A DNA stretch of 64,000 nucleotides from a virus (taxonomy: Duplodnaviria > Caudoviricetes), in IMG/VR virus record IMGVR_UViG_3300021400_000552, positions 32,001 through 96,000 of that record. One strand, given 5' to 3'. The position numbers were made by a program, and so were the translations under genes. Positions 37,627 to 63,160 of the stretch are shown piece after piece. Under the pieces are notes generated by a model, which made no database searches, had not been told where the DNA came from, and saw only the letters and a program-made list of their open reading frames with translations. The first letter of the stretch is position 1. Each line of letters begins with the position of its first letter.

Positions 37627-38134
37627 TTTGATCGTACCTCCATTTTAATATACCAGATTTTAAGTTCGCAATAATAAAATCTACATCTACCTGTCTAAGA
37701 CCTGGACCATTACGTAAACTATTTTGATCTTGCGTACAAAACCAATAATTACCTAAGTGATGTTTTTCCCAGTTAAAATCTTCATCATCTAATATTAAGA
37801 TCCTATTAATATCACGGCGATTTTTTAAGTAAGCAATCACTTCTTTGGCACGCAGATACCACTCATAAGACGGCGTTTCATCTGATATCTTTAAATCATA
37901 TTCTTCAAGCTTCTTTTCTAAATACCGTCCAAGCTCTGTAATTTTTTCCTTATTGCCACTCATCCATTCAGAGCGCCAAGTTGATGTTAACACCAACTCA
38001 GCACTCATTGCATTGACTAGTTGTTTTAAGAGAGCCACCTTTTGACTTTCAATGCCTCGACATCCACAAATTGTATCCGTTGTTTCGTCACTATTTAATA
38101 CGCCGTCAATATCTAAAAATATGATTGTTCTCAT
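37607..38134 (-). CDS. HAD phosphatase (Swiss-Army-knife RNA repair-like)
   Basis: IIFLDIDGVLNS, LVLTSTWR, TP....R..E, ILDD. Confidence 0.8.
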   Translation of the reverse strand: MRTIIFLDIDGVLNSDETTDTICGCRGIESQKVALLKQLVNAMSAELVLTSTWRSEWMSGNKEKITELGRYLEKKLEEYDLKISDETPSYEWYLRAKEVIAYLKNRRDINRILILDDEDFNWEKHHLGNYWFCTQDQNSLRNGPGLRQVDVDFIIANLKSGILKWRYDQIESESM

Positions 38135-39609: not shown

Positions 39610-40131
39610 TCACCTACTATATAAAATAATTGTTTTATTATTTAAGGTACTCTGAACATCGATCACTCTTTGATTTGAACTACCCCTAAACGGTAATGTA
39701 ATGTTGCGATTTTCAGATTCAAATTTGCCATCGATTAGAACATTTGTATTTGACAAAACTGTTTGTAGATATACATTTTGTCGCGCTTCTTGCATTAAGT
39801 ATTCAAATTCATATCCAGTCCAGATAAATATTAAAATGTTTGGATATTTTTGTTTGACTTTAGAAATGAGTCGTGTAGTAAATTCAAGATTTTCTTCGCA
39901 CAATGGCTCGCCACCAAGGACAGACAAATTGCGCTGTATGCCATTTTCAGCAATAGCGGAATCTATAAGCTCCAAAAGATCATCTTCGTCTATTTCATTA
40001 CCGCCATCAAAATCCCAAGTTTGTGGGTTATGGCATCCGGGGCATCGAAAGCGACACCCCTGACACCAATAACTCACACAAACGTCATATCCATTTACCA
40101 CATCGTTACGAATAATGCCTGCATATTTCAT
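39610..40131 (-). CDS. nrdG: Anaerobic ribonucleotide reductase activating radical-SAM protein
   Basis: D.VNG, GC.FRCPGCHN, LGGEP, WTGY, DG.F, FRGSSNQR. Confidence 0.95.
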   Translation of the reverse strand: MKYAGIIRNDVVNGYDVCVSYWCQGCRFRCPGCHNPQTWDFDGGNEIDEDDLLELIDSAIAENGIQRNLSVLGGEPLCEENLEFTTRLISKVKQKYPNILIFIWTGYEFEYLMQEARQNVYLQTVLSNTNVLIDGKFESENRNITLPFRGSSNQRVIDVQSTLNNKTIILYSR

Positions 40132-41415
40132 TGATGTTTCACTCTCATATTTACTTCCTGTTGTTTACCCTTATTAAAAGCTGTTGTGTAATTACCTGTT
40201 AAATATCCAGTTACCCTACGTAATTGTTGAATATCGTGACTCCCACACATTGGGCATGTGTCATTAAATTCGCCAGTAAAGCCACATTTTAAGCATGTAT
40301 CATTTGGCACGTTAACCGCAAAGTACGGAATGTCATGATCCATGGCATAGTTAACGATCGTTTCTAACGCCTTTGTATTGTTTTTTACTCCGCCATCAAG
40401 TTCCACATATGTAATACATCCAGCAGAACTGTATCCAGTTAGTTGTGATTCAATATCAATTTTTTCGAATGGACTTATATTTTTCCAAACGGGAACATGC
40501 ATTGAATTTGTAAAAAAGTCTTTATCGCTAATATTTTTAATTTCTCCATATGATTCTTTAAATTTTCGCATTGCTGTATAGCAAAGATTTTCTGCAGGTG
40601 TAAAATACACGCCAAAATTCAATTTGTATTTTTGTTTAAATTCGGCGCATCTTTGCTTGAATAGTTCTTCAATACGTTTTGCAAGTTCCATTCCGCGTTC
40701 ATCCGTGTGGTCACAGCCAATTAGGATCTGTAATGTTTCTGCCAATCCAAGTTGCCCAATGGCCAGCGTTCCATGTTTCAAGGCACTACGAATTCCCTCT
40801 TCTGGGACATACCCCGCCATAGTTCCGTTTTGATACATGAAAGTGGCCGCTTCTGGTGGTTGTGCACATATCCATTCAAATCTTTCAATAAGAGAATCTT
40901 TGGCTTCTTGGATCTTTGTGTCTAATAAATCGATAAATTGATCGACATCCTTATTCCCAATATCGCCATCTACCTCCATTGCTAAAGTTGGCATAATAAT
41001 TGTTGTTGGGCAGATATTTCCACGACCATCTTTTAACTGACCGAAACCGTTAATATCAAGACCATTTGCCGTTCTGCAGCCCATGGTGCTAAAGAATGTT
41101 CTTGGATCATTTACATCGTATCCAGCGTTTCCGCTCCAATCTACGTTCGCATAGTTTGGATATAGCCGCTTTGATGTTGATTCTAATGCCAGTTGGAACA
41201 GATCGTAATTTGGATCGCCCGGTTTGCGATTAACGCCATTCATACACTGGAATATTCCACATGGAAAGATTGGTGTTTTATGAAGTTTACCGATACCAGC
41301 AATAGATACATCAAGTAATGCTTTTGTAATAAGTCTGCCTTCCGGCAACGTACATGTGCCGTAATTAATTGAAGAGAATGGCAACTGATTACCCGACCTA
41401 GATTGTAATGTATTC
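40128..41415 (-). CDS. nrdD: Anaerobic (class III) ribonucleotide reductase, exon 2
   Basis: After splicing reads (L)NTLQSRSGNQLPFSSINYG. Contains MGCR, PAENLC, CxxC..CPxC and the RRVTGYL glycyl-radical motif. Confidence 0.95.
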
Positions 41416-42360
41416 CATAATGTTCACGTAGATTCGCTACTTTCTACGCAGTTCTCTTATGAACTTCTGCATATCACTATGCAGATCAGACTATATCTTC
41501 ACCCTCGAATATATGAGGGGGCTATCTTTTCCATGCGCTTGCATGTACTCCATATTTGGATAGTCGTTAGACATTTATACATTATTTATTAATTATATCG
41601 AAAATGATAACCATGAGTGCTTTTATGCCTGCCTTTGCAACAGGCGCAAATTGCCGTTGCGTATATATTTAATTGTCTACCACATTCTTGTATAGATGGG
41701 TACACCTTATCTGTTTCGTAACAATAAACTTTCTTTTTTTCATGTGAATCTGAAATCTTTTTTCTTGTTGCCATACTTGGACTTTTGTGTGGTTTGTTTT
41801 TCTTTGCAGCTGATATATTTTTTCGATGCTCTGTTGATAATTTTTTGCCCTTTTGTGCCATACTGATTTTCTTTTTCTTTTCTTCAGAACATATTTTTCC
41901 TAAGCCATTTTTATTACCACGCATTATTTGTGACATATATTGTCTTATTTCCAACGGCATAGATGGAGCTGTGCCACCCTCCATAATATTATATCCAAAT
42001 GCCTTATCTTGAGTTTTATACTCACGTATAAGTCGTTTTTCTAATTCACAAGCCTCTTCTTTAGACAAATTTGATTTAATAATTTCGTGTTCAAAATTAC
42101 TCCACCCATATTTATTTATAGCGTTAAAAAAGTATGGTGAACTTCGATATTTGATTCCATTTAGGCCACATCTTTCCTCTAATGTGCGTTTTGTGATTCC
42201 TATATATTGTTTATTGTTAAGTTTATTGATATGTCTATATACGCAATATTTATCACTCATAATTAAATAATGTAATTTAGTACGGTATTGTCTCAGTGAG
42301 ATGTTCACCGTTTAGATAGCTATGTTCCCAATATTACTATTGGGTCGCCCAAATATTTAT
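41416..42360 (-). mobile_element. Group IA2 self-splicing intron in nrdD (945 nt)
   Basis: Core CTAAACGGTGAAC..AGACAATACCGTACTAAAT, AAATGTCTAACGACTATCC, GAAGATATAGTCTGATCTGCATAGTGATATGCAG, ending GAACATTATG. The IGS UAUUUGGG pairs with the ligated junction CCU|GAAUA. Splicing restores YHNLNTLQSR. Confidence 0.95.
41589..42260 (-). CDS. Intron-encoded GIY-YIG homing endonuclease
   Basis: Probable start ATG 42260. CVY..N.KQYIG.T, GYN..GG, NUMOD3 repeats (SEEKKKKIS, STEHRKNIS, ATRKKIS) and a NUMOD1 HTH. Confidence 0.9.
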   Translation of the reverse strand: MSDKYCVYRHINKLNNKQYIGITKRTLEERCGLNGIKYRSSPYFFNAINKYGWSNFEHEIIKSNLSKEEACELEKRLIREYKTQDKAFGYNIMEGGTAPSMPLEIRQYMSQIMRGNKNGLGKICSEEKKKKISMAQKGKKLSTEHRKNISAAKKNKPHKSPSMATRKKISDSHEKKKVYCYETDKVYPSIQECGRQLNIYATAICACCKGRHKSTHGYHFRYN

Positions 42361-43253
42361 AGGTTATGATACATTCCCTCGACGGCCTGGTACGCTTCTC
42401 TCATCGTCATATCTAATGCATACTTATATACCTCCGGCATATCTTTATAAAATTCCGCCTCAATAGATAGGTCTGCCGGATCACAACTTAATGCGATTTC
42501 ATCTATTTTTTCTAAATACTTGGCGCCATCTTTATAATGTTTATAAAACGATTTCCTCACATATGGAACCATAGAATGATCCAGATGTGTTGCGCTCACG
42601 CCTCCAAACTGTTGCAAACTTTGAATCTGGAATAATACAGCTACTAATTGCATCGCAGTGCTGATAGACTGTGCTGGTCTTACATCTGTCTGTCGCGTTT
42701 CAAATCCGTTTGCCAACAAATCATCGATAGGCACCGACAAACAATTGTGATCACCGAGTGCATAATGTCCAAGATCGTGAATATATACCATGTTATTAAC
42801 ATGATTATCTCTTGTAGTCTGAGACACTAATTCGTTCAACGCATAAGCTTTTAACACACTTTCTGCCGTTTCACCCATACGACCACCAAATGATTTTTCA
42901 TCTACATTTGCATTCTGATTTTGTACATTACTGGCTTGTGCTTTTTCACGCACAATGTTCATAATATCGCTACGCATTTCTCGTCTACGTGTACGTTGAT
43001 CGCGATATAAAATATATGCTTTTGCTACATCTTTACGATTGCTGGCCATTAATTTTTTTTCGACGATATCTTGTATTTCTTCGACCGTCATATCTTTGTT
43101 CATAGATTTGACATAGCGCGCAATTGTTTGCGCCTTTAACTTTGCAGCCGAAGTTAATTCTCCATCAACCTCCAAAAAGGCTTTTGTAATGGCAGAAATT
43201 ATCTTCGTAATATCAAAATCATCTTTGCGGCCATCTCTTTTAGTCACAATCAT
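42361..43253 (-). CDS. nrdD: Anaerobic ribonucleotide reductase, exon 1 (ATP cone)
   Basis: KRDGR...FD..KI ATP cone, NANVDE, IHDL, NC, Q.GG. Ends ..EGMYHNC(T) at the intron. Spliced product 726 aa. Confidence 0.95.
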
Positions 43254-48486: not shown

Positions 48487-51400
48487 TTATGATTCAACTT
48501 TGCGCCAACGTTTTAAGATTGTTTCCAGTTCATCAATTTGTATCCATTGATCATCTTGTTTCTTCCATTTACGTTCATCGCTGGCACTTAGCGTTAATAT
48601 AATGTCGTTCTTCTGTATAGGATTTTGTTCAAAGGCTTTGCCTTTTATCTTGACTGTCTCAGTCTCTCCAGTTTTGAGGCGATATAATTCTACGATTCTG
48701 TTGTAATACTTATCATTAATATCAACGACAAATGCTAATTTTGCATCAGCATTAGGCTTTATAGTTTCGATGTATCCAAGATATTCTCTTTGATACTTCA
48801 TCTTATCAACAATGCTAGTTTGGCGTTCTTTCCCATCGTCCAAGGCTCTGATCAGTTTCATAGAATCGTCAATTTTGAACATTTTTTCGGTTTCCATAAA
48901 ACCTAAATTTGATAGAATTTTTTGTTCGTTTTTGTTGACATTTTGCTTCGAAATTTGCTTTCTTTCATGCCATTTTGTCAACAATTTATTCTGATATAAT
49001 AACTTTTTTGGACTTCCGAACTCTGAAAAAAAATCAAGTTTGATTAATATATCTAATTGATCAGATTGCACAGACGTTTCAGCGTGAATCGCCTCTAGCA
49101 GCTCATAAAAGTCACTATACTCTCTCTTACCAAGTTCAAACAATTCGTTTGAGATTTTGCGATTTAAATTCTTTACAGATGCCAACCCTTTATAAATTGT
49201 GTTTGTGGCTTTATCATAAGTATACTCCGGCCTTGAATGTCTAAATTTGATGGATGATAATGTTAGTCCAAAATAGTCAAGTTCTTTTGCCAATCTGCGC
49301 GTCTTGTCTTCTTTCTTCTCATAAATATTGAATACCTCTGTGTAATATTCGATTGGGTAATGTGATTTTAGGTAGGCGCAATATAGACAATCAAGTGCAT
49401 ATGCCGTTCCATGCGGACTATTAAAGCCATACGCCATCATACTCTGCATATCTTCCCAAATATCATCAAACCCATCAATAGAACCTGTTTGCTTGATCCA
49501 ACCTTCTCTCAACCTATCGGTGAGATTATCAAAGTCGCTTTGTTTAATTTTCTTTTTTGAGATTTTCTTGATTAACCCAATAGATTCCGCTGGTCCAACA
49601 CCAAGCCATTCGAAATATTGCATCAAGTTTTCTTGAAATAAGACGAAATGATTAGTCGATTCCAAGATATGGTCAAGGTCTTTAGACCCGGTAGTGTATG
49701 GTTTACGATGAATAAAGTCATCCCTGAACGAATTAAATGATGGGCGAATACATGCAACGAATTGTGCCAGTTCTTCAAGTGTCTGTGGTTTATATTCCAT
49801 TACGAGGCTAGTTGCCCATTCGCCATCTACTTGATTCAATGTTGATGTAATTCCATTTGCAAACAGGTCCCAAACTTTATCGTCCAATGAATTGATGAGT
49901 TCGCGAACGCTCATTATAGGTTGATTAATCGATTTAAAAATCTTATTTATAATGTCCCATACCGTGACGATTAAGTAATCATTTTTTAAATATTTATATT
50001 CATCGGCTTCATCGGATGTTATTAGCGCACACAACACACCTTTGGCGCCTCCAATACGAAACACTCCTATTTCCTCCCGTATATCTCCGTTAAATAACAG
50101 ATGCGCACACGGATGTGGGGAGCATGATACGATAGTACCAATATACTTTTGGGCCTCATCAATAAGATCTGACCACTCAGGATCATCTCGATATTTGTCA
50201 ATGTGCATGGCTATCGAATTTGTGAGCGCATATGGTATTCCTCGCGCCCTACATGTATTTCGCACAGCTTCTGATTCTTTTAGTGTTCCGTATGCAATCA
50301 TGGGATAGCATCCATGTTCGCCAAGCAAGTCCTTACTAGCCTTGACGAAAGGCTCCTGCTCAATGATATTATAATCAATATCCGGCATAGCTTTATTTTC
50401 AAGCAATCTGGCTGTTGACATGAATCGTTCGCTGTAGATTGGTAAATTTATTGCTAACCTATCAATTTCAGTCATTCCTAATACTTTATTGATTAAAAAT
50501 GCACCACCAGAGCCTCGGCCACTACGAGTTAATACGCCACCGTATTCGTCGATCGCTCTGTGCATTAATTTGTAGTTAAGCAGGAAGTAATCATCACTAT
50601 GGACGGCGCTAGTTTCTTTGATTACTTGAAATTCCTTTGCTATTTCTTTTCGATATTGATCAATCTTTTCATCTGGAATGCAATCCTCGCGACACATAAC
50701 TGGAAATCTTTTAGCAATGATTTTTTTGAGATCGTTTAATTTAACACTTTCATCCGTATTTGGTGGATATATAGATGGCATTTTAACGTCTTGGTTCAGA
50801 ATAATATCTTCACAATCGTCAAAAATTAGAGTCTGTTCAATACTAGATGCTATATCTCGCTCACTTAATATGCCTTGATTTCTGAATCTATTAAATAACT
50901 CTTCGTAAGATGGATAGTCCAGCATAAAGGCATCTTCGTCGCTATACCCTTCACCTTTACGTTTTCCGGCTATCAGCTCATCTCTATCATTTTTCTGCTC
51001 TGGAAAAATATAATGACTATCATTGGCTGCTATCAGATACAATCCATATTTACTGGAAAATAGATACGCCTTCGCGTTCAGTTCCTTTTGTACATCGACG
51101 TTATGCGATTGAACCTCAAGCATGACGTTCTTTCCGTATTTTTCCACTAAAGGTTCAAATATTTGCGATACCACATCGTCGTCTCGAATGATTCCGGCAA
51201 TACACGCTGTTGTTATGAATAACTCATTGGGCTGAAAGTTCTCAAGCAAATCATTCATAAAAAATCTTGGTCGATAATAATAACCATCCTCATGAGCGTG
51301 TGAACTTGCCAAATTTAACTTTTTCCGAGCTGCATTGGTAGTTGGAATGAGGATAATGTGATAATTACGCCTATCTTTCTCCAATGGATCTGGTACGATG

Positions 51401-51618
51401 TAACCTTCAATTCCGAATTTACAATGAATACCTCGTTGCCGACACAGTGTATTGGCCTCGAATATATCTCCGCCAGAACCGTGATTTGTTGTGAAATATG
51501 TATCCGCACCAAGTTCTTGGATACGATCTAAATAATCAACACATTTGGCATGACTATCAGTTGTCATCAATGATGACATATGATCATGTTTGTGGTAATT
51601 GTTATATCTTTGCTTCAT
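48487..51618 (-). CDS. dnaE: DNA polymerase III alpha subunit (phage DnaE)
   Basis: PHP domain (YHKHDHMS, TNHG, NDSHY), GRGSG, MPDID, HPCA, K.D.L, YGFNSPH..AY..YLK.HYP. Start ATG 51618 after AAAGGA. Confidence 0.95.
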   Translation of the reverse strand: MKQRYNNYHKHDHMSSLMTTDSHAKCVDYLDRIQELGADTYFTTNHGSGGDIFEANTLCRQRGIHCKFGIEGYIVPDPLEKDRRNYHIILIPTTNAARKKLNLASSHAHEDGYYYRPRFFMNDLLENFQPNELFITTACIAGIIRDDDVVSQIFEPLVEKYGKNVMLEVQSHNVDVQKELNAKAYLFSSKYGLYLIAANDSHYIFPEQKNDRDELIAGKRKGEGYSDEDAFMLDYPSYEELFNRFRNQGILSERDIASSIEQTLIFDDCEDIILNQDVKMPSIYPPNTDESVKLNDLKKIIAKRFPVMCREDCIPDEKIDQYRKEIAKEFQVIKETSAVHSDDYFLLNYKLMHRAIDEYGGVLTRSGRGSGGAFLINKVLGMTEIDRLAINLPIYSERFMSTARLLENKAMPDIDYNIIEQEPFVKASKDLLGEHGCYPMIAYGTLKESEAVRNTCRARGIPYALTNSIAMHIDKYRDDPEWSDLIDEAQKYIGTIVSCSPHPCAHLLFNGDIREEIGVFRIGGAKGVLCALITSDEADEYKYLKNDYLIVTVWDIINKIFKSINQPIMSVRELINSLDDKVWDLFANGITSTLNQVDGEWATSLVMEYKPQTLEELAQFVACIRPSFNSFRDDFIHRKPYTTGSKDLDHILESTNHFVLFQENLMQYFEWLGVGPAESIGLIKKISKKKIKQSDFDNLTDRLREGWIKQTGSIDGFDDIWEDMQSMMAYGFNSPHGTAYALDCLYCAYLKSHYPIEYYTEVFNIYEKKEDKTRRLAKELDYFGLTLSSIKFRHSRPEYTYDKATNTIYKGLASVKNLNRKISNELFELGKREYSDFYELLEAIHAETSVQSDQLDILIKLDFFSEFGSPKKLLYQNKLLTKWHERKQISKQNVNKNEQKILSNLGFMETEKMFKIDDSMKLIRALDDGKERQTSIVDKMKYQREYLGYIETIKPNADAKLAFVVDINDKYYNRIVELYRLKTGETETVKIKGKAFEQNPIQKNDIILTLSASDERKWKKQDDQWIQIDELETILKRWRKVES

Positions 51619-51775
51619 AGTAATGTAGTCCTTTAGCTTTGAATTCTCTAGGCATAGGTCTAGTACCAAGAAACCAACGATTTATAACTCGTCCATAATT
51701 ACTAACCCGATACCTTTCTTCATATCCACGAACATCTCTCCATTTTTCATGAGTATTCTTTGGAGTATCACTCAC
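51602..51775 (-). pseudogene. NUMOD4 homing-endonuclease remnant (57 aa, not in ORF track)
   Basis: VSDTPKNTHEKWRDVRGYEERYRVSNYGRVINRWFLGTRPMPREFKAKGLHYYEAKI: a NUMOD4 motif fused directly to an HE C-terminal tail, with no nuclease domain. Confidence 0.7.
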
Positions 51776-52884
51776 AGAAATGACTCCAAATCTTCACTCA
51801 TTAATCTCTTCTGTTCTAGAAAATCCGCAAAATGTTTACAATGTTTACTATGACCGCATAGCGCAGAACAAAAGAAATAGTCATCAACTTCTCGTCCATT
51901 CTTTGTAAATTTGGTAAATGACCGTGGTTCCCATTGATCTACGTCATCATTGCTACGTTGATTAAACTGCGTTATCATATTTTCAATCCATTCCTTACAC
52001 TCCTCTCTAGTCTTATCATTGAGCGGATACTCAACAATGCAAGGTGTGATTAAATAATTCTCTCTGACTGAAGCCGGAAGACCATCCAGCGAATTTGTCG
52101 TAAGAGCCATATCAACAAGCATTTCAATTTCGATATCATCATAATCATTCTCTATCAGATCCTGTCTAATATATGGTTCAAGCTCCTGAACTAATTTGCG
52201 ACGATTAATATTTTTTACAATTTTAGTTTTGCATTTTGAATTAATTCGCGCCTTCCCCATAAAGATTACGGTTACATATTTTAAGAAATACCAAGCGATT
52301 TTCTTTACTCGTTTGCCGTTTTGTTCAGCAGCTAATGCATATATTAGTAATTGTTTAGCATGTTCATCCAAATCGTTCCCGCTATACATGCTACTAGTTT
52401 TCCAGTCATATATAGAAATTTGATCTTTATCTACTTGATCGTGCTCAATTAAATCTATGTAACCTTGAATAAACGTATCTTCATTAATTTTATATAAGAA
52501 AAATTCCTCCGTATTAAATGTCCCCTTTGGTGGGATGAAATTTTTTGCAAAATGCCTCATATCCGCCATCCAATTATCTTGAATAGTGTTATTACCTTTG
52601 CGATCTTTGGGGAAAGATAACCCAAGTAGTTCTGCCTGTTCAAAGCTATCATCGACAATGTCTGGTAAACTTCTTACATGCATCTTGCCCTGCATAATAG
52701 CTTCTAATGCATCATGTATATTGCCACCAAGAACACCATATATATTATTTTCACCGCGGCAATGCTTTACATATGTTAAATAAGCGGCATATGGACAATT
52801 TTCCATAGTAGATAATTTGGAAAACGAATATACGTTTTTACCGTCCTTGAACAATTGCTGCAAGGTTTCATTTTCTGCTCTCAC
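51772..52884 (-). CDS. PD-(D/E)xK exonuclease (RecB/AddB/Cas4-like)
   Basis: YSFSKL...CPY, G..IH..LE, GYIDLI, IYDWKT, QL.IY, C-terminal C..LC.....C. Confidence 0.85.
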   Translation of the reverse strand: MRAENETLQQLFKDGKNVYSFSKLSTMENCPYAAYLTYVKHCRGENNIYGVLGGNIHDALEAIMQGKMHVRSLPDIVDDSFEQAELLGLSFPKDRKGNNTIQDNWMADMRHFAKNFIPPKGTFNTEEFFLYKINEDTFIQGYIDLIEHDQVDKDQISIYDWKTSSMYSGNDLDEHAKQLLIYALAAEQNGKRVKKIAWYFLKYVTVIFMGKARINSKCKTKIVKNINRRKLVQELEPYIRQDLIENDYDDIEIEMLVDMALTTNSLDGLPASVRENYLITPCIVEYPLNDKTREECKEWIENMITQFNQRSNDDVDQWEPRSFTKFTKNGREVDDYFFCSALCGHSKHCKHFADFLEQKRLMSEDLESFL

Positions 52885-52886
52885 AC

Positions 52887-53939
52887 CTATTGTTCATCAC
52901 CTCCAAGCCATATAACTTTATTTTGTAATAACTTTTGAAATGTTTCTTTACCAAGATCCGTCGGGGAGCACTTGCTCCCCTTCGGCATCAACTCATGTTC
53001 TCTGTCGAAAATGTATCCGACATTTAAATGATATATATGATTTCGCATTTGCAGCTTATTTGCTGCATCGCGAAGTATTGATTCGTCAAGCCCTTCGTCA
53101 AAAGCTACGATTATTCTGTTAATGCTGGCGCAATTACTTTTTAATATTTTCGCTTGCACATCCGACACTGTATTTGTACATGTCGCTAATCCGAAATTAA
53201 ACCCCATTGAATCCATTTGCATCACAGATTTTTCACTCTCTACAAGAACGCATCCAGCTCCTTGCTCTATAGATCGGATATTATTAGCATATCCGAATAA
53301 TGTTAGACTACGCGGACATGGAATGATTGGCAACCAACGTTCGCTATAGTCACATACAGAACTATTCATGCGGCCCATTAATCCTATTAGATTTCCATAA
53401 ATATCTCGTTGCGGGATAATAATTCTTCCAGAATCCGCGTCATAACCAAGCTCATATTTGACTTGAGATGCGAAATCAATACCGTCCTTATAAAACAACA
53501 TATTGGTTCTGATTCCGCCATATTCTGCTAACGTATTTTCTGGTAAGATGCTTAAATTTGCTTCAGGTGATTCTTTATCTTTAAGAATGTCACGCCAAAA
53601 CCCATCAAATGGAAGTTTAATTGTGCAATCTTGGTAGCCATTGTCTTTAAGATTTAATTTACGCCCAATCCACTCCAGTGCGTAACGAAAGCCTAACTTC
53701 CTACGATCCATAACTAACGATACGATGGATCCTTTTGCACCGGTTGAAAAACATTTATAAAACAATGTTTTTGTGTTTATACACACGGATGTCGGGTTGT
53801 GCCCATCTTTCCTTGAACAGCGAATTTCATTTCGCCGCTCATTATATGCAATATTGCACATCCCAAGCTCTTCGAGGATTGTAACGATGTCGTCGACATT
53901 GTTGCGTAGATGTTCGTTTATTTTAATAACGCTGTACAC
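52887..53939 (-). CDS. DNA primase (DnaG-like)
   Basis: N-terminal zinc-ribbon-like region, RIIIP.RD..G.L.G..GR, TOPRIM VESEKS...AFDEG, K.SPTD. Confidence 0.8.
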   Translation of the reverse strand: MYSVIKINEHLRNNVDDIVTILEELGMCNIAYNERRNEIRCSRKDGHNPTSVCINTKTLFYKCFSTGAKGSIVSLVMDRRKLGFRYALEWIGRKLNLKDNGYQDCTIKLPFDGFWRDILKDKESPEANLSILPENTLAEYGGIRTNMLFYKDGIDFASQVKYELGYDADSGRIIIPQRDIYGNLIGLMGRMNSSVCDYSERWLPIIPCPRSLTLFGYANNIRSIEQGAGCVLVESEKSVMQMDSMGFNFGLATCTNTVSDVQAKILKSNCASINRIIVAFDEGLDESILRDAANKLQMRNHIYHLNVGYIFDREHELMPKGSKCSPTDLGKETFQKLLQNKVIWLGGDEQ

Positions 53940-53943
53940 CTAC

Positions 53944-55422
53944 TCACCCCTTTCGAGAATAACCATCGAAATCTACGTGTGTATATCCGACTTCTTTCAT
54001 CGTATTGTAATCCATATTGCGCTCATATATTATTGGCGGTCCAATACTTCCGAATCTGTTTTTGGGCGTGAATAAGATAACATAATCCTTTTCTGGGTCA
54101 AGTGGTATCTCGCGTGTCTTCCTTTCGTAATTGACCCCAACATCCTCGTAGGCGAAAGCTTTGATTTTGTTATTTTCCAGTTCCGATTTGCTAACTGATC
54201 GGAACATTACAACTTGCGTTGCTGTTTCAGCAATGGCACGTGATTTACCAACGCAAGACAGGTCTAAGTATCTCCTACTCATACTATCCGATGATAGTTG
54301 TGCTGTAGCGACGATAGCAACGTCGCATTTTTTGGCCAGCAAAAAAAGTTGTTTTGCTACTTCACTGAATTCTGCCCAGGCTCTGTCTGTAGATTCAACC
54401 GTAGGCTTTAGCGTGTCAAAAATAAACAATGTGTATTTCTGTTTGCTATATTTTTTGATGATCTTTTGTACATTTCCGATGGAATAGTCACGCGTCTCAA
54501 CCATACAAATGTTGCCTGGTTGGCTTGCGATCCAATCCTGTCCTTGTTGCATTATGTCTAATTGTTCAGCAGTATAACCTCCCTCAATAAACTTTGATCG
54601 ATTTATAATGCGAGATCCTAATGTGTGACACACCACGGTGGACAGTATCATTTGCCTGAATTCAGAAACGTCTTGTTCATTAGCGATTATACAGACATTC
54701 TCTCCGTTTTGAATTGCCGGTAAAATATAGAATAAGATAGCTGATGTTGTTTTACCGTTACCGATATGAGCCATGTGAAGAAGCAAATTTTTCTTGTGAA
54801 CACCCATCAGCCTATCATTTAGAAGATTGAAACCAATTGGGGTTCCTTTCATGAACCCTGTGTCCCATTGTTTTATGTATGATGCGTATCCTTGAGACAA
54901 ATCTTCGGCTTGCATTCTATCGACATTTGATATACAGGTCTCATCAACAAGCCTTTCTACCTCGTCGTATAGTTGTTCGGAGTTTAGTGATTGATAATAT
55001 GTCAGGCTATCTATTACGTTGAAACCGTTCTGATGAAGACGAATCAACATGTTAGATTTAATTAATTCATCATAGTAGCCGTCGATGTTGTCTGTTTGGA
55101 TGGTGTCTAATATTTCTGCGACCGTATAGTAACCGCCACGTGTTTCGAATTCTTCACGCAACTTTTCACGATCCACTAAATAACTTGCTATTGCCATATT
55201 GTCTATGACATCAAAACCTAAATCGTGTACACCACACAAGATTTTGAAATATATTTTTCCATCTTCTGACAACAAATCGTCATCGTTGATTAGTGGAGCG
55301 TAATCTTCGTATAGTAGCGGATCTTTCCATAGTGAGAATACTAGATTGCATTCAATCGCGCCCCTGTTTTTAAGTAATTGCTTTGGGATTGACGAACCTC
55401 TAGCGACTCTCCTTGCAGCCAT
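53944..55422 (-). CDS. dnaB: Replicative helicase (DnaB-like)
   Basis: Walker A-like AHIGNGKTT, ANE, IFDT, TAQL, KNRFG. Confidence 0.8.
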   Translation of the reverse strand: MAARRVARGSSIPKQLLKNRGAIECNLVFSLWKDPLLYEDYAPLINDDDLLSEDGKIYFKILCGVHDLGFDVIDNMAIASYLVDREKLREEFETRGGYYTVAEILDTIQTDNIDGYYDELIKSNMLIRLHQNGFNVIDSLTYYQSLNSEQLYDEVERLVDETCISNVDRMQAEDLSQGYASYIKQWDTGFMKGTPIGFNLLNDRLMGVHKKNLLLHMAHIGNGKTTSAILFYILPAIQNGENVCIIANEQDVSEFRQMILSTVVCHTLGSRIINRSKFIEGGYTAEQLDIMQQGQDWIASQPGNICMVETRDYSIGNVQKIIKKYSKQKYTLFIFDTLKPTVESTDRAWAEFSEVAKQLFLLAKKCDVAIVATAQLSSDSMSRRYLDLSCVGKSRAIAETATQVVMFRSVSKSELENNKIKAFAYEDVGVNYERKTREIPLDPEKDYVILFTPKNRFGSIGPPIIYERNMDYNTMKEVGYTHVDFDGYSRKG

Positions 55423-55425
55423 TTG

Positions 55426-56514
55426 TTATGCCAGTAACTCAATAAGGTTTTCGAGAACTTCGATTGGCATGTCGGGGTCTTTGATATTAGAACATCCAGT
55501 ATCTAGAATCATTTTCTTAAATTTCTGTTTAACGTCTTTATCTGCACCCGGCAATTTTTTTGAAATTTGATCAACATAGTTCGATCTTAAATTTTCTTTA
55601 GCCGCCTTAGCTTTTTCTTCCTCCTCTTTCTTCTTAGCGACCTCTGCTTTTCTTTTAGCCTCAGCCTCCTCTTCGGCCTTAAGCTTTTTAAGATCAACAT
55701 CTCCATCCATTGACCCCCTAACACCTTGTTCAAAGGCGTCAAGGAATTCACGTGGCGAAAGATGAATCTTTTCTGGGAGGTTAGAAAAACGACTGCCTGC
55801 GTCTACTTCTGATGTGCCACGCAGATACACAACTCTATCTTCATTGACAATTTTTCCATTTACAATATCTCTATCCATGACGCCAACCATCACCATCTGA
55901 GCTGCATCTGCAATTTTTGTGTAAATGTTGCCTTGTAAATTGTTGGTAATCTGTTCGTACTTTTCACCAGTTTTGAGATCAGTTTTTTCTTTATTTTTTG
56001 TATGACACAGATAGAAAACGGCCAAACCAGCCATTCTCAATCTATTTTCCTGCTCCCTCATTAAAGAAATCAGCCTATCAACGCCTCTTGCAAAACCGCC
56101 AAAGGCATCATTTAAGCTCTTACATACCGTACCTTTTTCACGCTTATGTTGCTTTAAAACTTCTTCTGTGCAGACATCCACCATTGTATCCAATGTATCG
56201 AAACATACACCTTTAATGCCGTACTCGTTATTATTTTCTACAATATCATCTACAATCTGCACAAAACCACGAAGATCAGTGTCTTCATCGTATGGGGCGT
56301 CCCACTTCTGTGCAACTTCGACTTGGATCCCATCTAATGCATGATAGCCTTCTTCATTACCGAACGAGATCAGCAATCCTCTTGTGTCGTCGCCCCATGC
56401 TTCTCTAACCAGGTCGCGCCAGAATGTGGTCTTGCCAAACTTTCGTTCTGCAAGGAATATATATGGTGGATAGCTGCAGAGGTCTGCTTTAACTTTATTA
56501 ATCTTGAATCCCAT
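55426..56514 (-). CDS. AAA ATPase (Sak4/AAA_24-like recombination protein)
   Basis: KFGKTT, E.GY.A, FDT.D, GGF.RG, HTK.K, AGSRF. Confidence 0.75.
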   Translation of the reverse strand: MGFKINKVKADLCSYPPYIFLAERKFGKTTFWRDLVREAWGDDTRGLLISFGNEEGYHALDGIQVEVAQKWDAPYDEDTDLRGFVQIVDDIVENNNEYGIKGVCFDTLDTMVDVCTEEVLKQHKREKGTVCKSLNDAFGGFARGVDRLISLMREQENRLRMAGLAVFYLCHTKNKEKTDLKTGEKYEQITNNLQGNIYTKIADAAQMVMVGVMDRDIVNGKIVNEDRVVYLRGTSEVDAGSRFSNLPEKIHLSPREFLDAFEQGVRGSMDGDVDLKKLKAEEEAEAKRKAEVAKKKEEEEKAKAAKENLRSNYVDQISKKLPGADKDVKQKFKKMILDTGCSNIKDPDMPIEVLENLIELLA

Positions 56515-56526
56515 TTATCCTCCTTT

Positions 56527-57591
56527 CTAGCCAAGTAAATCTTCCAGTGTGGTGTCTGATAATTCGTCATCATCATCCGATTCGTCAATTACTTCCTCAA
56601 TTTTGACTGGAGTTTCAGTCGGAGAGTATACCTGCTCCTGCAACTCATCCATAGTGTAGCCGGCGTCGACAGGTCCATCAGAGAATTCGCCATTAAGCAT
56701 CTGCTTAAAGAATCGGAATTCATAGATGTTCTCACCAATTGCACTTGCAAAATCTTCTGGCTTCGCAATACCACACTCGATCTGTTGTTTCTGACGATCT
56801 GTAAGCATATCTGGGTCGAAATCCTGTGTTTCTACGCCGCGAATTACCTTGCAATCCCATGGCAGATGAATGATATCCTTATCTTTAATATCAATATCCA
56901 TCAAAAGCATCTTTGCGTACTTCTGATGTTGTTCACTATCATCGAATTTACTTACATCCAAGACAACTCTCTGTGGAACGAATTTCTCACCTTCATCTTT
57001 GTTGATGTACTGTTTAATATATCCATCTACAATGATACGCTTCTTGTCTTTAAATTCGGATTTGTCAATACATTCCTTGTTATAATACAGATCAAGCTTC
57101 AAATGCAGAGAATTCCGCTCTGCGGTGGATGCACGAACAGTTTCAACCTCAAATTTGTCAAACATCTCACCCTTCCAAAATGACCTACTATATCTGCCGC
57201 TGCAGAAAATTTTACCGCTATATGTAGTGAGTTTTTCCTCTAAATATTCAATAAAATCATACTTTGATAGAAAATGTTTTTCTCCTTCATCAAATTCCGC
57301 AGTAAATAATCTGTAATTTGGAATATCGGAAATAATATCGCTATCAAATCGACTGTCCCATGGAACCTCGATCTGATTTCCATCTTTATCATATGACATA
57401 ATTGTGTCATACTTGACACCAAAACCCTCAACCCACATTGAGTTGTTGCGGCTTTCTTTTACGCCAAACCTAATTGACGCCATATCCGTGTCTTTGTTCG
57501 CACCTCCTTTCCACTTTCTGACAAATGAATCATTGCTCTTTTTTGAGATAATCGGTTCACCAACAAAACTAAATCTTGCTATGTACGCCAA
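56527..57591 (-). CDS. Single-stranded DNA-binding protein-like
   Basis: OB-like N-terminus (RFSFVG), strongly acidic C-terminus, upstream of the AAA ATPase/helicase as in SPbeta-like phages. TTG start after GGGAG. Confidence 0.6.
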   Translation of the reverse strand: MAYIARFSFVGEPIISKKSNDSFVRKWKGGANKDTDMASIRFGVKESRNNSMWVEGFGVKYDTIMSYDKDGNQIEVPWDSRFDSDIISDIPNYRLFTAEFDEGEKHFLSKYDFIEYLEEKLTTYSGKIFCSGRYSRSFWKGEMFDKFEVETVRASTAERNSLHLKLDLYYNKECIDKSEFKDKKRIIVDGYIKQYINKDEGEKFVPQRVVLDVSKFDDSEQHQKYAKMLLMDIDIKDKDIIHLPWDCKVIRGVETQDFDPDMLTDRQKQQIECGIAKPEDFASAIGENIYEFRFFKQMLNGEFSDGPVDAGYTMDELQEQVYSPTETPVKIEEVIDESDDDDELSDTTLEDLLG

Positions 57592-57614
57592 AACACTATT
57601 CTCCCTTCTAATAA

Positions 57615-58004
57615 TTATTCTAAAACTTCTATGTAGTCGCTAATATGAATAGTGAAACCTTGCTCAAACTCATTGTTTCTTTGTAGATAATTTTCATCAT
57701 TGTTATTTGGATCGTCATCCCATGGAACGCTCCACTGACATTTTTTGCCATTTTCGAAAATTACATCTACCCATGAAATATCACGAGCTCGGCACAATCT
57801 ATTAAAAATATCTGGACTACGATAGATTTCCTTATCAAAAAAAATATGTGTGCTATACGGGATATGATCAAACACATCAGCCATTGGCCATTTCGTACGT
57901 TCAACGCCCATTGCCTCAATATACTTCCTTGGAACAACAATCTGTTCCAAATTTTCAAATGTAATAACGATATGTTTAATCTTTGTTAAGTTGAAATAAT
58001 CCAT
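57615..58004 (-). CDS. Hypothetical phage protein
   Basis: I.FEN.E..DI..V...VPW...N.LQ motif; AGGGGA RBS. Confidence 0.6.
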   Translation of the reverse strand: MDYFNLTKIKHIVITFENLEQIVVPRKYIEAMGVERTKWPMADVFDHIPYSTHIFFDKEIYRSPDIFNRLCRARDISWVDVIFENGKKCQWSVPWDDDPNNNDENYLQRNNEFEQGFTIHISDYIEVLE

Positions 58005-58028
58005 TACAAATCCCCTATGTTTGTTACA

Positions 58029-58190
58029 TCAATATCTTTTATTCTTTTTGTTATGTAACATTACAGATGCCGCATACTGTGCTTCCATATTTCCAGAAGC
58101 TGCCTTCGCTAGTAAAATATCCCCAATAGACGCTGTAGAACGCCTATATGGACGCTGTGATTGTTTTAACTTTGACTTACTAGATTTCAA
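58029..58190 (-). CDS. Small basic protein (53 aa, not in ORF track)
   Basis: GAGGTGG RBS then TTG: MKSSKSKLKQSQRPYRRSTASIGDILLAKAASGNMEAQYAASVMLHNKKNKRY. Confidence 0.55.
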   Translation of the reverse strand: MKSSKSKLKQSQRPYRRSTASIGDILLAKAASGNMEAQYAASVMLHNKKNKRY

Positions 58191-58237
58191 TTTACCACCT
58201 CACTTGTTATATTTTATATTTAATGTATTTAAAAAAA

Positions 58238-59155
58238 TTAACTATTCCATAATTCTATAAAGCGATAAAATTGCTCTCTTTTTGTTTTTGTTAATCTATC
58301 CCCATTGAAACAATATTCCAGTATGTGTGCACGATCACTATTTGCCGAATGATGCTGGTAGAAATCATATAATTTACCCATATAATATATGTCTTTCAGT
58401 TTGAGCCGCAATCCACGCATATTATAAATCACCATCATGTTCTGTCGGCGTATTTCTCCTGGTGCATTTCTCCCATTATCAATCAAATATTGATTTAACG
58501 GCAAAACCTCTTGCATATTTGCATGTTGATAACAATAATTACGACATGTTGCAACCTTTGCAATTAAATCTGAAAATTCGTCATATACGATCACAATCCT
58601 ATCGTTTGTGATAATTGCAATATTTTGTTCCGTTATTTTTACATTATCGACAGTTAAGGAAATTGCTTCATTTGGGGAAAACCCTTGATATATCAACATA
58701 GCATACGCTGTTGCAATTTCATCGATTGATAGTTCATCCGAATATTCTACGCGCTTGGTAAGTCTAGACCGTAATTTGATTGTAAATTCTTGTGGGGTAT
58801 AAAAAATTTCGATATTACTGCACTGCAAAAAAATCTTTTTAAGATCTACATTTTCTTCAACATATGCTTTAGCATAAGGCTGCAATAGGCCCTGGTTTAA
58901 CGCCCATCTTTTATAATCTTTAATGTCATAATATCTTGTGCGAAAAGTCATAAATGACGATATGTTGCTTTTCTTTATTACTTCTGGTAGTAAAATATCA
59001 AAAGGAATATCGTAAATGTCTGTATCATGTTTGCTTTCGCATTCGAAAAGAATGTCAAAAATTCTTTGTGCATTCCTTCTTTTCGCATCGCTCTCCAACG
59101 ATTTACAATAGCTCAGTTTGACATCTTGGTTATATATTTTTGCATTACTCGCCAT
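58238..59155 (-). CDS. Catalytically degenerate integrase-fold protein (MrpR/YopR-like repressor)
   Basis: YN...K..Y N-terminus, E....D.YD, LIYQGF...EAISL...NV (box I without Arg), DIYYMG in place of HxLRHS. Start ATG 59155 after GAGGTG. Confidence 0.6.
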   Translation of the reverse strand: MASNAKIYNQDVKLSYCKSLESDAKRRNAQRIFDILFECESKHDTDIYDIPFDILLPEVIKKSNISSFMTFRTRYYDIKDYKRWALNQGLLQPYAKAYVEENVDLKKIFLQCSNIEIFYTPQEFTIKLRSRLTKRVEYSDELSIDEIATAYAMLIYQGFSPNEAISLTVDNVKITEQNIAIITNDRIVIVYDEFSDLIAKVATCRNYCYQHANMQEVLPLNQYLIDNGRNAPGEIRRQNMMVIYNMRGLRLKLKDIYYMGKLYDFYQHHSANSDRAHILEYCFNGDRLTKTKREQFYRFIELWNS

Positions 59156-59189
59156 CAATACACCTCGTGCGTAACTTCGATTTAATCGC

Positions 59190-59219
59190 ATTTTATATGT
59201 ATCGATGGCCGCTTGTCAA
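59190..59219 (-). promoter_or_regulatory. sigmaA-type promoter of MrpR-like gene
   Basis: Minus strand TTGACA-N18-TAAAAT. Confidence 0.65.
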
Positions 59220-59228
59220 TGGCAAATC

Positions 59229-59639
59229 TTAAGTAACGTAAGTACGTATACTTTTTAATTGTTCCATAGATAAATATTGAATCAGTGGGATGCTGATCAT
59301 GCTTGCGATGGATATTTGCTCCATGTATTCTTTCGGTAAATGCCCCATATAGCAACGTATGCTATCTTTATCGATGGTGCAGACTGATTCACATTGCACA
59401 ACGCTATCTTTAGTAAGCCCGGCTACTCCAGCCGGTATTTTAACATGTGTTGGAAGGCTAGATTTTTTACATCTGCTTGTTAACGGAAAAACTTGTACCG
59501 TTGGGCTATGATAGTTCCCAATATTATTTTGCACTATCACGGCCGGTCTAATCCCTCTTTGAACATGACCCTTGCCATTTAATTCAACCCATACCAAATC
59601 TCCTAACTTAACACTGTTCTTATTCACCTTGACCACCAT
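59229..59639 (-). CDS. mazF: PemK/MazF family endoribonuclease
   Basis: GD..W..L...G.VQ.G.RPAVIVQN.IGN..SPT....LTS..K..LPTHV..GL.KDS....E...IDK, collinear with Firmicute MazF. Catalytic Arg and Thr are retained. Confidence 0.9.
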   Translation of the reverse strand: MVVKVNKNSVKLGDLVWVELNGKGHVQRGIRPAVIVQNNIGNYHSPTVQVFPLTSRCKKSSLPTHVKIPAGVAGLTKDSVVQCESVCTIDKDSIRCYMGHLPKEYMEQISIASMISIPLIQYLSMEQLKSIRTYVT

Positions 59640-59719
59640 ATACCCTTATATAGTTATATTTTATTTTCATATGTATTATACTATATAAATAGCGGTTTAT
59701 TGTCCCCTTTTATAGAAAA

Positions 59720-60001
59720 TTATATCTTTTTTGCATTAAAAGTATAAATGTTATTTTGGTGATCTGTAATGGTGATTAGGTCTCGATTAAATGGCAGTTC
59801 TTCTATACTGAAATTTAATAATGAATCAAGGACACACACACTGTCGCCACTATTAGACGTTAATATAAGATGACCGTAACGATCAAGTTCAACATATGTG
59901 TATGTGTTCGTAAACTGCATTGTGATATGATCATTGATATAATATTCCTGATGATAGGTTAGTGACTGATATTTCTTTAGAACGTCATATAGTTTTTCCA
60001 T
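59720..60001 (-). CDS. Hypothetical protein under LexA-box promoter
   Basis: GGAG RBS; downstream of the SOS-box promoter. Confidence 0.6.
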   Translation of the reverse strand: MEKLYDVLKKYQSLTYHQEYYINDHITMQFTNTYTYVELDRYGHLILTSNSGDSVCVLDSLLNFSIEELPFNRDLITITDHQNNIYTFNAKKI

Positions 60002-60036
60002 TATCGCGTCTCCGATATTGTGCTGCTGATGAAAAA

Positions 60037-60065
60037 ATTATATTACGAACGTGTGTTCTCGTCAA
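60037..60065 (-). promoter_or_regulatory. sigmaA promoter with LexA (Cheo/SOS) box in the spacer
   Basis: TTGACG-N17-TATAAT. The spacer contains CGAACGTGTGTTCT (60046-60059), a 13/14 match to the Bacillus consensus CGAACRNRYGTTYG. Confidence 0.75.
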
Positions 60066-60084
60066 GATTTGTGGCCTGCAGTTG

Positions 60085-60399
60085 CTAATAGGCGGTAAGT
60101 ATCTGCCCTATTTTCTTGTTTTTCCAAGTATTTAATTCTTTTCGAGTACGGAACATATTTGGCATATCGTTAAAATCATATACACCGAAATCCCTAAGTA
60201 TAGCTATTGTCATATGTATATCTGTCTGCTCCGGCGGTAAATTTAAGATGTCTTCTGGCTGACAAGAAATATCTGTAACACAGTGAGAGCGCCCAAGTTT
60301 AACAACCCCCTTATGTTTCTCTCGGCATTCTGAAGAACAGAATATTTGCCTTTTTGAATACGGCTCAAATGTCGTACCGCAAATCGGACATTTATTCAT
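60085..60399 (-). CDS. Zinc-finger hypothetical protein
   Basis: CPICG..F......FCSSEC; GAGGGGG RBS before ATG 60399. Confidence 0.6.
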   Translation of the reverse strand: MNKCPICGTTFEPYSKRQIFCSSECREKHKGVVKLGRSHCVTDISCQPEDILNLPPEQTDIHMTIAILRDFGVYDFNDMPNMFRTRKELNTWKNKKIGQILTAY

Positions 60400-60610
60400 T
60401 GCGATCAACCCCCTCATCATATCGTTTGAGTATTTCATTTGTTACCATAATATGCGTATGTCCATTTAACATATAATTTTCGTGAATATAATCATGTGCA
60501 ATCGTATACAACTGCTTTTTACTCATTTTCGATTTGTACTTTTTCAAATAATCTTCAAGCCCCATCTTCCTGACTTCAGATGCGACGATTTTGTGTGAAT
60601 TATTGCCCAT
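60392..60610 (-). CDS. Hypothetical protein
   Basis: GAGGTG RBS. Confidence 0.55.
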   Translation of the reverse strand: MGNNSHKIVASEVRKMGLEDYLKKYKSKMSKKQLYTIAHDYIHENYMLNGHTHIMVTNEILKRYDEGVDRNE

Positions 60611-60619
60611 ATATCACCT

Positions 60620-60811
60620 CTATTTAATATTTGATAATATCTTAATGTACATTTCTGCAGCCTTTGTATCACCAACGAGCATTGCCTGTCTCACCTTTTC
60701 CTGATAAAACTCTTTGTCTCTTTTCTTTTTTCTACTTTGTACAACAAAAAGTGTACCCCAAATACCACCAATTACAAAAAACTGAACAATACTCGCACTA
60801 ATCATTATCAC
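60620..60811 (-). CDS. Small membrane protein
   Basis: N-terminal TM helix followed by a basic cluster. Confidence 0.5.
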   Translation of the reverse strand: MIMISASIVQFFVIGGIWGTLFVVQSRKKKRDKEFYQEKVRQAMLVGDTKAAEMYIKILSNIK

Positions 60812-62521: not shown

Positions 62522-63160
62522 CTACTTGAAATCTTTGTACTTGATTTTCACAATGATTCGCTTTCCCCTACGGTCTCTCAGTTCCACCTTCGGTCTGCCT
62601 ACCACACCTTCCATATCTGCTGTCCCGATAGTTGACTTCGGATGACCTTTGATATATTCAACGCCGTCGTCAAGTGTCCCCTCCAAGACGATTGGGACAA
62701 CATCTACTCCGAACGTCTTGGCTATATCCTCTACAGAATCTCTTCTTAAGTACATGTCGTCTCTTGGGGCGTATACGTCGAAAAGGATGAAGTCTACTCC
62801 GTTGGGGATGTATGATCCACCCTTCTGGATCTTCGCCCCGTATCCCTCACCGAACAGCACTACTTCCATGTCGCCAAATTTCTGCTCGAACAATTGCTCG
62901 TTCTCATCGCCACCGAACAGATCGTTCAGCCTGTCCAGAAGAAATGTCGGAATCTGCGCCTTCGCTGTCCTTCCTTGAATGTGGATCTTGTGTCCGTCCC
63001 AATAGATCCCGATGTTGGTTCCATCGATCTTCTCTGTAAACTGCCACTTGATGTCTTTTAAGGACTCCACCGTTGCGTCCCGGAACACCCCCGGCATTAA
63101 CTTCTTCGACCCCTCAAGATCTCTCTGATATAATGTCTCTATCTTGTGATACTCATACAT
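62522..63160 (-). CDS. ATP-dependent RNA ligase (Rnl2-like nucleotidyltransferase domain)
   Basis: Y.KI, TEKIDGTN, LFGEGYG, F.LFDV, VVP, EGVV.R, KIK. Confidence 0.85.
   Translation of the reverse strand: MYEYHKIETLYQRDLEGSKKLMPGVFRDATVESLKDIKWQFTEKIDGTNIGIYWDGHKIHIQGRTAKAQIPTFLLDRLNDLFGGDENEQLFEQKFGDMEVVLFGEGYGAKIQKGGSYIPNGVDFILFDVYAPRDDMYLRRDSVEDIAKTFGVDVVPIVLEGTLDDGVEYIKGHPKSTIGTADMEGVVGRPKVELRDRRGKRIIVKIKYKDFK

Follow-up and report, generated by a model that had tools for sequence, protein, structure and literature searches.

The locus considered here lies at positions 58,029 to 60,065 of a 64,000-nucleotide stretch of viral DNA (Duplodnaviria; Caudoviricetes), called the window below, which comprises bases 32001-96000 of the IMG/VR virus record IMGVR_UViG_3300021400_000552. 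It encodes on the minus strand, in transcription order, a small protein of 93 amino acids (aa), a MazF/PemK endoribonuclease and a 305-aa protein of the tyrosine recombinase fold. We hold it to be slightly more probable than even that these three genes constitute an immunity and induction module, in which the 305-aa protein is the repressor that silences the prophage, the 93-aa protein is an antirepressor controlled by LexA, and mazF is a gene controlled by the repressor. An earlier note made from the DNA letters alone had presented the locus as its best candidate for an undescribed system. This does not apply to the core of the module, which matches the published LexA-Sar-SroF switch, whereas the phage-borne MazF within an immunity module of the SPbeta type and the family of small proteins without detectable similarity to Sar are new. 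No description of a MazF inside an SroF-type module was found in the literature.

SroF, MrpR and YopR denote the master repressor of the SPbeta-group phages, which no longer works as a recombinase and of which MrpR retains three of the seven catalytic residues (PMC10516654). Structures of these proteins are found in the Protein Data Bank (PDB) as 9RD5, 9RGL, 8A0A and 8BJ6. The 305-aa protein matches the Pfam family PF22822 (MrpR_N_CB) with 36.7 bits against a cut-off of 27 bits, and with 40.7 bits when searched in six frames. An exhaustive search recovered 35 relatives. PDB searches with a single repressor sequence or with a four-sequence profile gave no match; a profile of 32 sequences found phi3T SroF (9rd5) with an E-value of 1.6e-13, YopR with about 2e-11 and MrpR with 3e-10, the matched structures being 9rd5, 8bj6 and 8a0a and the match extending over positions 1-281 of 302, that is, over both domains. 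In addition, alignment of the family to SPbeta YopR with hhalign yielded a probability of 96.4%.

The AlphaFold2 (AF2) model built from the family alignment has a mean predicted local distance difference test score (pLDDT) of 93.7, while the model obtained from the single sequence of a 317-aa open reading frame (ORF) was unusable with a pLDDT of 35. When the former was compared to known structures using Foldseek and VIA-align, SroF, YopR and MrpR ranked first. In detail, VIA-align gave a Z-score of 17.5 to DNA-bound phi3T SroF (9rd5_H; root-mean-square deviation 5.6, 280 residues aligned) and of 14.4-15.1 to YopR, MrpR and 9rgl, and the recombinases XerA, Cre and XerH followed at about 10-11 (XerA and Cre at 10.9). 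A nearly invariant glycine of the family aligns with G136 of MrpR, the residue at which the c2 mutation confers heat sensitivity. The recombinase family PF00589 was not matched by the 305-aa protein at E-values up to 0.1, the position of the catalytic arginine of box I is occupied by Ser160 in an hhalign alignment of low probability, and the catalytic domain contains no invariant Arg, His or Tyr among the 32 family members. By profile and predicted structure, the 305-aa protein is a genuine integrase-fold protein of the SroF/MrpR/YopR family, as the earlier note had supposed when it called it MrpR-like.

Upstream of the 93-aa ORF lies a promoter-like sequence, TTGACG-17-TATAAT, which agrees with the consensus at 11 of 12 positions and is the top promoter-like site within 57500-60700. 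Its spacer holds GAACACACGTTC (60047-60058), a perfect GAAC-N4-GTTC LexA (Cheo) box of the Bacillota type. Such a box alone is not rare, as three perfect ones are present in 115 kb where 1.5 are expected. However, all eight loci for which upstream DNA is available have a LexA box within the promoter spacer upstream of the small ORF (TTGAC(A/G/T), a spacer of 17-18 nucleotides (nt) and TATAAT, with GAAC-N4-GTT(C/T) beginning 1-3 nt past the -35 element), and since this placement recurs in diverged loci it is far beyond chance. The LexA box in the spacer of a near-consensus promoter, as described in the earlier note, is real and conserved. No terminator-like hairpin was found on the minus strand between the small ORF, mazF and the repressor gene, so that transcription from the SOS promoter probably continues across the three genes.

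The three genes recur as a set throughout a clade of uncultured phages. Their order is fixed, with the small ORF (92-104 aa) first, mazF second (131-146 aa) and the MrpR-like gene last (294-320 aa), in the window and in 11 further contigs, which is every contig of a relative that reaches far enough upstream, at repressor identities from 61% down to 21% (L003 and L004, 45%; P0007, 38%; L005, 36%; L007, 30%; L012 and P0017, 26–29%; L014, 21%; also L017-L019). The contig L013 begins inside the module and still has the mazF-repressor pair; L006 and L011 begin too close to the repressor gene to be informative. The spacing between the small ORF and mazF is 80-95 nt across contigs, and mazF always stands beside the repressor gene, between it and the gene of the putative SOS promoter. 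The pairing of mazF with an mrpR-like gene, whose lack of conservation the earlier note had named as an argument against its own proposal, is therefore conserved by synteny. The 12 contigs found with P0047 include assemblies of 134-167 kb obtained from samples of the human gut. Searches of cultured phages with the region and the repressor (blastn and tblastn) gave no match, and a related-locus search in IMG/VR and GTDB genomes gave no relative.

The MazF assignment is based on PF02452 (3e-25, 89 bits against a cut-off of 23.1 bits) and phrog_1936 (8e-31). The closest relative of solved structure is EndoA from B. subtilis (4.5e-21, about 41% identity), whose Arg25 and Thr48 are aligned, and the corresponding catalytic residues R27 and T50 are invariant among the relatives of the clade; the protein is under purifying selection. 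As the earlier note had stated, no recognisable MazE accompanies it: neither the neighbours of the module nor the whole 115-kb record contain an antitoxin of the MazE/AbrB or ribbon-helix-helix (RHH) families. The 80 nt between the 93-aa ORF and mazF in the window contain a TATAAT -10 element, and TGnTATAAT is found upstream of mazF in five to six relatives (L003, L004, L005, L007, L012; L017). With a conserved -10 element of its own, mazF is not driven by the LexA promoter alone. MazF genes are also common in the collection of cultured phages (89 records), where they occur in other contexts and are annotated as "growth inhibitor". Two of these were considered as cultured counterparts and rejected: in Psychrobacillus phage Perkons the 328-aa ORF near mazF is not MrpR-like, and the MazF of a Coprococcus phage sits in another context.

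A link between mazF and the repressor is suggested by short repeats. The 12-mer ATAAAATATAAC is located 8 nt past the -10 element of mazF and again at 58206, in front of the 53-aa ORF with which the replication block begins. A near-identical copy with one mismatch in 14 positions lies at an equal distance past the -10 element of a small recombinase gene, and a looser copy with two mismatches lies past that of another early gene. Two relatives have different exact repeats at the matching two positions, i.e. at the mazF promoter and after the repressor gene: a 12-mer in L005 and a 16-mer in L014. In three lineages, then, an exact repeat pairs the mazF promoter with the region past the repressor gene, and its sequence is different in each; in L003 and L004 the motif of the window is found at the promoter of the repressor gene and in front of the small basic ORF. 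Repeats that are conserved in position but change in sequence by lineage resemble the operators of a diverging repressor. If they are operators, mazF belongs to the repressor regulon and would be shut down in lysogens but active at infection and at induction; on this sequence evidence mazF is most likely a repressor-controlled early gene. The claim of the earlier note that the phage has wired a MazF of its own to the SOS response therefore stands for the MazF, not for simple SOS wiring, given the separate mazF promoter and the repeat that it has in common with the leader of the replication operon.

The repeat can also be written as A(A/T)A(T/C)AAAATATAAC, which occurs 7-8 nt past TATAAT at three promoters (those of mazF, the small recombinase gene and the early ORF) and before the 53-aa ORF; the sites are 59653-59667, 58206-58219 and 70868 (-) in window numbering and L009:1136 (+).

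The repressor gene has the separate promoter that the earlier note had listed, TTGACA-18-TAAAAT. At all ten loci compared (the window, 59190-59202, and L003-L005, L007, L011-L014 and L017), TTGAC(A/T) is followed by TACAT directly before an AT-rich -10-like element, which is ATAAAAT in six of them. TACAT is the DNA form of the site cut by MazF of the B. subtilis type, and it would be contained in transcripts that read through from the SOS or mazF promoter, not in those initiated at the repressor promoter. If used in this way, it would let MazF cut read-through messages of the repressor gene only and leave the promoter-initiated ones intact; it may equally be nothing but a promoter element.

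Induction of phi3T and SPbeta requires Sar (phi3T_99, YopT), a small protein repressed by LexA via an SOS box, the gene of which is separated from sroF by one ORF; it binds SroF with an affinity in the nanomolar range and mimics its operator DNA; the Sar-SroF pairs are phage-specific, and undetectable between phages by BLAST (Chmielowska et al., bioRxiv 10.1101/2025.11.27.690993). Sar of SPbeta is YopT (PDB 2DLB). Position, size, charge and putative LexA control of the 93-aa protein are like those of Sar, which makes it the likely counterpart. Of the two roles proposed for it in the earlier note, antirepressor or non-canonical antitoxin, the match to the LexA-Sar-SroF switch gives the former the leading place and renders the latter less likely. 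The 93-aa protein found no match in Pfam, where a DNA-binding domain was also missing, nor in PHROG, PADLOC, NCBIfam or, by profile search, the PDB, in which neither 2DLB nor the Sar chain of 9RGL was matched. As phi3T Sar and YopT are themselves less than 20% identical, this leaves room for a common fold. The ESM Atlas model of the protein is confident (predicted template modelling score 0.75), and its structural neighbours are either unnamed or PH-like and ChuX-like. In view of these neighbours and of the missing similarity to YopT we call the protein an analogue of Sar and not a homologue; by analogy of position and regulation it most likely is a functional one.

The small protein is acidic in seven of eight loci (isoelectric point, pI, 4.5-5.1), and homologues detected by profile search occur only within the same trio, which is why phylogenetic profiles cannot separate a partner of MazF from a partner of the repressor. 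Within the clade the small proteins have a mean identity of 28% and the repressors one of 33%, whereas the MazF proteins reach 54%. The partial correlation of pairwise divergence between small protein and repressor, given MazF, is 0.76, and that between small protein and MazF, given the repressor, is 0.25. Both observations, if indirectly, make the repressor a better candidate than MazF for the partner of the small protein.

Compared with the LexA-Sar-SroF switch, the locus has an integrase-fold repressor of the same family and a small gene that is preceded by a LexA box, has the same orientation as the repressor gene and is separated from it by one ORF, and both proteins diverge fast, as phage-specific pairs would. 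The differences concern gene order and content. In SPbeta the order is yopR, yopS (on the opposite strand) and yopT, the small gene thus being downstream of the repressor gene and the intervening ORF being the helix-turn-helix gene yopS, whereas here the small gene is upstream and the intervening ORF is mazF. Furthermore, sroF is the last gene of the six-gene sro operon but the repressor gene here is alone with its own promoter, and the small protein is without detectable similarity to YopT and probably has a different fold.

A role of MazF in the life cycle of these phages has precedent. Host MazF promotes lysogeny of phi3T, AimX and YosL inhibit MazF, phi3T_93/YopM frees MazF from MazE, and MazF is reported to spare the messages of the sro operon (Zamora-Caballero et al. 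2024, PMC10769878; Guler et al., 10.1101/2023.04.27.537455). Here, too, a MazF of the EndoA type is tied to a repressor locus of the SPbeta type; it is however encoded by the phage under its own promoter, and no counterpart of MazE, AimX, YosL or phi3T_93/YopM was recognised. In relation to the canonical type II operon mazEF / ndoAI-ndoA, the locus has the PemK/MazF fold, the catalytic residues and an upstream ORF of antitoxin size; it differs in that no AbrB or RHH antitoxin is present, the upstream ORF is set apart by 80-95 nt and a promoter, and the predicted control is by LexA and not by autoregulation. LexA-controlled antirepressors are known from coliphage 186 (Tum), the Gifsy phages and N15. 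With these the module would share the coupling of a non-cleavable repressor to the SOS response by a small LexA-repressed protein, although repressor fold and antirepressor family are unrelated and those modules are not known to carry a nuclease.

In the reading that we favour, for which we infer the binding steps, the control by LexA, the repression of mazF and the target and role of MazF, the 305-aa protein, a tyrosine recombinase fold that would have lost the recombinase active site, would be made from its own strong promoter and keep the prophage silent. Host LexA would occupy the spacer of the upstream promoter until DNA damage removes it and the 93-aa protein is made, which most likely binds and inactivates the repressor like Sar in phi3T and SPbeta. 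The mazF gene would be silent in lysogens and expressed on infection and induction, and as it would be silenced by the repressor in lysogens no antitoxin would be needed. During infection MazF would probably cut messages while repressor accumulates, biasing the outcome towards lysogeny as host MazF does for phi3T, and the repressor would then turn mazF off. Such a self-limiting RNase pulse and an early host shut-off fit a repressor-controlled mazF equally well.

There are however several observations that weigh against this reading. The repeats could be promoter elements instead of operators, and with no terminator between the genes SOS induction would raise transcription of the repressor as well. 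The small-protein family shows no sequence similarity to YopT (hhalign probability 0.2%), and its Atlas neighbours, compared by description only, look unlike the Sar fold of four strands and three helices. The co-variation with the repressor is weak evidence, as it comes from 28 non-independent pairs of which two close pairs dominate. Both the order, with a candidate antitoxin before the toxin, and the size of 93 aa would also suit a MazE-like role. If the cleavage motif is UACAU, an assumption made from the identity to B. subtilis MazF, no avoidance of it is seen genome-wide, with 1.40 sites per kb in the phage genes where 1.42 are expected, and a sparing of the repressor message, as reported for the sro messages of phi3T, is at most a weak trend (two sites against 7.7 expected in the repressor genes of the five closest loci, nine against 13-15 over nine loci). 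Finally, SroE/YopQ, YopM and AimR were not found, a tblastn search with AimR, YopM-Q and YopS-U of SPbeta having given no match, at the sensitivity of BLAST, in a record estimated to be about 65% complete, so that the circuit would differ from that of SPbeta.

The same order and size are the starting point for an alternative that we regard as unlikely, namely that the 93-aa protein and MazF make up a type II toxin-antitoxin pair of non-canonical kind, controlled by LexA and serving as an addiction, abortive-infection or superinfection-exclusion cassette that just happens to lie in the immunity region, and that the repressor is inactivated otherwise. An antitoxin-sized ORF and a toxin gene are always found together, 80-95 nt apart, the small protein is acidic like MazE, the record holds no other antitoxin, and phage MazF genes are common as "growth inhibitor" morons. 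LexA-regulated toxin-antitoxin operons are known in E. coli (dinJ-yafQ, yafNO), which also counts for this possibility. However, mazF has its own conserved promoter, and with LexA bound the toxin would thus be made without the antitoxin unless it is otherwise silenced. In addition, the small protein lacks a DNA-binding domain by Pfam and diverges with the repressor while MazF stays conserved, the MazF of cultured phages occurs without the small protein or an MrpR-like neighbour, and repressors of the SroF type are known to require an SOS-induced antirepressor.

It is improbable, in our view, that MazF merely is an early lytic nuclease for host shut-off or takeover without part in the decision between lysis and lysogeny, its location reflecting the organisation of the early genes. 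This would agree with the apparent co-regulation of mazF with early lytic genes, as indicated by the repeat common to its promoter and the leader of the replication operon, with read-through from the SOS promoter and with the RNA-repair-type genes of the phage (see Table). In contrast, the lack of UACAU depletion mentioned above speaks against it; the first replication genes are even enriched in this motif, so that early messages of the phage itself would be cut if this is the site of cleavage. Moreover, MazF activity favours lysogeny and not lysis in phi3T, and this reading offers no reason why mazF should lie, in every contig, strictly between the gene behind the LexA box and that of the repressor. 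We consider it very improbable that MazF has its antitoxin in the MrpR-like protein, the two forming a toxin-first pair of the higBA kind, and that MazF is released when the SOS-induced small protein titrates the repressor. In favour are the adjacency of both genes in all contigs and the last ~25 residues of the repressor, which among close relatives are conserved more than any other stretch and are located past the part aligned with YopR. Against it, MazF is far more conserved than the repressor, and in the AF2 model the conserved C-terminal helices belong to the recombinase fold.

The features of the locus and of its surroundings are listed in the Table. The module is followed by the 53-aa basic ORF and the replication genes that the earlier note had placed there, and the relatives likewise have homologues of the small basic ORF (48-56 aa, RPY(R/K)R) downstream of the repressor gene, although the copy in L003 had not been called.

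Table. Features in the window (positions in window numbering)
Feature	Position	Strand	Remarks
Candidate SOS-controlled promoter	60037-60065	(-)	TTGACG 60065-60060, 17-nt spacer, TATAAT 60042-60037
93-aa acidic protein	59720-60001	(-)	pI 5.1; behind LexA-box promoter; candidate SOS-induced antirepressor
mazF promoter region	59653-59680	(-)	-10 TATAAT 59680-59675; repeat AAAATAAAATATAAC at 59667-59653, 7 nt after
MazF/PemK endoribonuclease	59229-59639	(-)	ORF from ATG 59639; likely start by homology GTG 59627 (132 aa)
Promoter of the repressor gene	59190-59219	(-)	TTGACA-18-TAAAAT, 11/12 to consensus; TACAT abuts -10
305-aa SroF/MrpR/YopR-family protein, candidate master repressor	58238-59155	(-)	Pfam, profile, AF2 model
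Repeat ATATAAAATATAAC, candidate operator common with mazF promoter	58206-58219	(-)	just 5' of 53-aa ORF
53-aa basic protein	58029-58190	(-)	RPY(R/K)R motif; first gene of replication block
Replication block	48487-58004	(-)	129-aa and 354-aa unknowns, Sak4-like AAA_24, DnaB, primase, PD-(D/E)XK nuclease, PolIII alpha
Tyrosine integrase, 387 aa	35732-36895	(-)	PF00589 3.7e-25, SAM-like N-terminal domain, phrog_1 2e-53
RNA ligase	62522-63160	(-)	phrog_548
HAD_SAK_2 domain protein	37607-38134	(-)	"Swiss Army Knife RNA repair" domain
NrdD, two ORFs	42357-43253 and 40128-41384	(-)	anaerobic ribonucleotide reductase
Homing endonuclease gene	41589-42308		GIY-YIG / I-HmuI-like; between the NrdD halves

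The source record has a length of 115,675 bp and stems from an animal gut metagenome. Plus-strand late genes extend to about 35.7 kb in window numbering, and minus-strand early genes, read from the far end of the record, extend to about the same point. A single-subunit RNA polymerase of the YonO type (899 aa, L009:4984-7683 (+)), which is 41% identical to SPbeta YonO over its full length, places the phage among the SPbeta-like phages, and the full-length tyrosine integrase indicates a temperate one. Judged by these genes, together with the PolIII alpha replisome and a second tyrosine recombinase, this large gut phage is SPbeta-like and probably temperate.

A second tyrosine recombinase (260 aa, L009:1171-1953) is located near the left end of the record, outside the window. 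Divergent from its gene is a 154-aa ORF without family match (L009:491-955 (-)), and a second perfect LexA box, CGAACAAATGTTC (L009:981-992), precedes the ribosome-binding site of this ORF by about 12 nt. From this arrangement, the 154-aa ORF is a candidate second SOS-controlled gene and perhaps encodes an excision factor.

The same phage that encodes its own RNase toxin also has an RNA ligase and a protein with an RNA repair domain, and RNA-ligase-like genes are found near the module in relatives, too. The two NrdD ORFs with a homing endonuclease gene between them suggest an intron in the NrdD gene. Elsewhere, at L010:11468-16381 (-), a reverse transcriptase (RVT_1) adjoins a ThiF-family E1-like gene and unknown proteins, and an ArdA-like antirestriction protein is encoded at L010:18198-19001.

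In phi3T and SPbeta, MazF is linked to lysogeny by way of a toxin-antitoxin system of the host, and whether this is a domesticated defence is still under debate. That in the present clade the phage itself carries MazF, always with the putatively SOS-controlled gene on one side and the repressor gene on the other, argues for MazF activity as an integral and selected part of this type of switch, and no peculiarity of Bacillus. We advance only tentatively, as a doubtful but specific proposal, that this clade of SPbeta-like gut phages has internalised the MazF step altogether, the repressor replacing the antitoxin, a pulse of MazF favouring lysogeny and the 93-aa protein of a new family switching off the repressor and perhaps MazF. 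With three genes and three promoters the module is compact and could be rebuilt in a laboratory host of the Bacillota. The small proteins would represent a second, unrelated-looking family of LexA-controlled partners of SroF-type repressors, in line with such antirepressors being hard to find by sequence.

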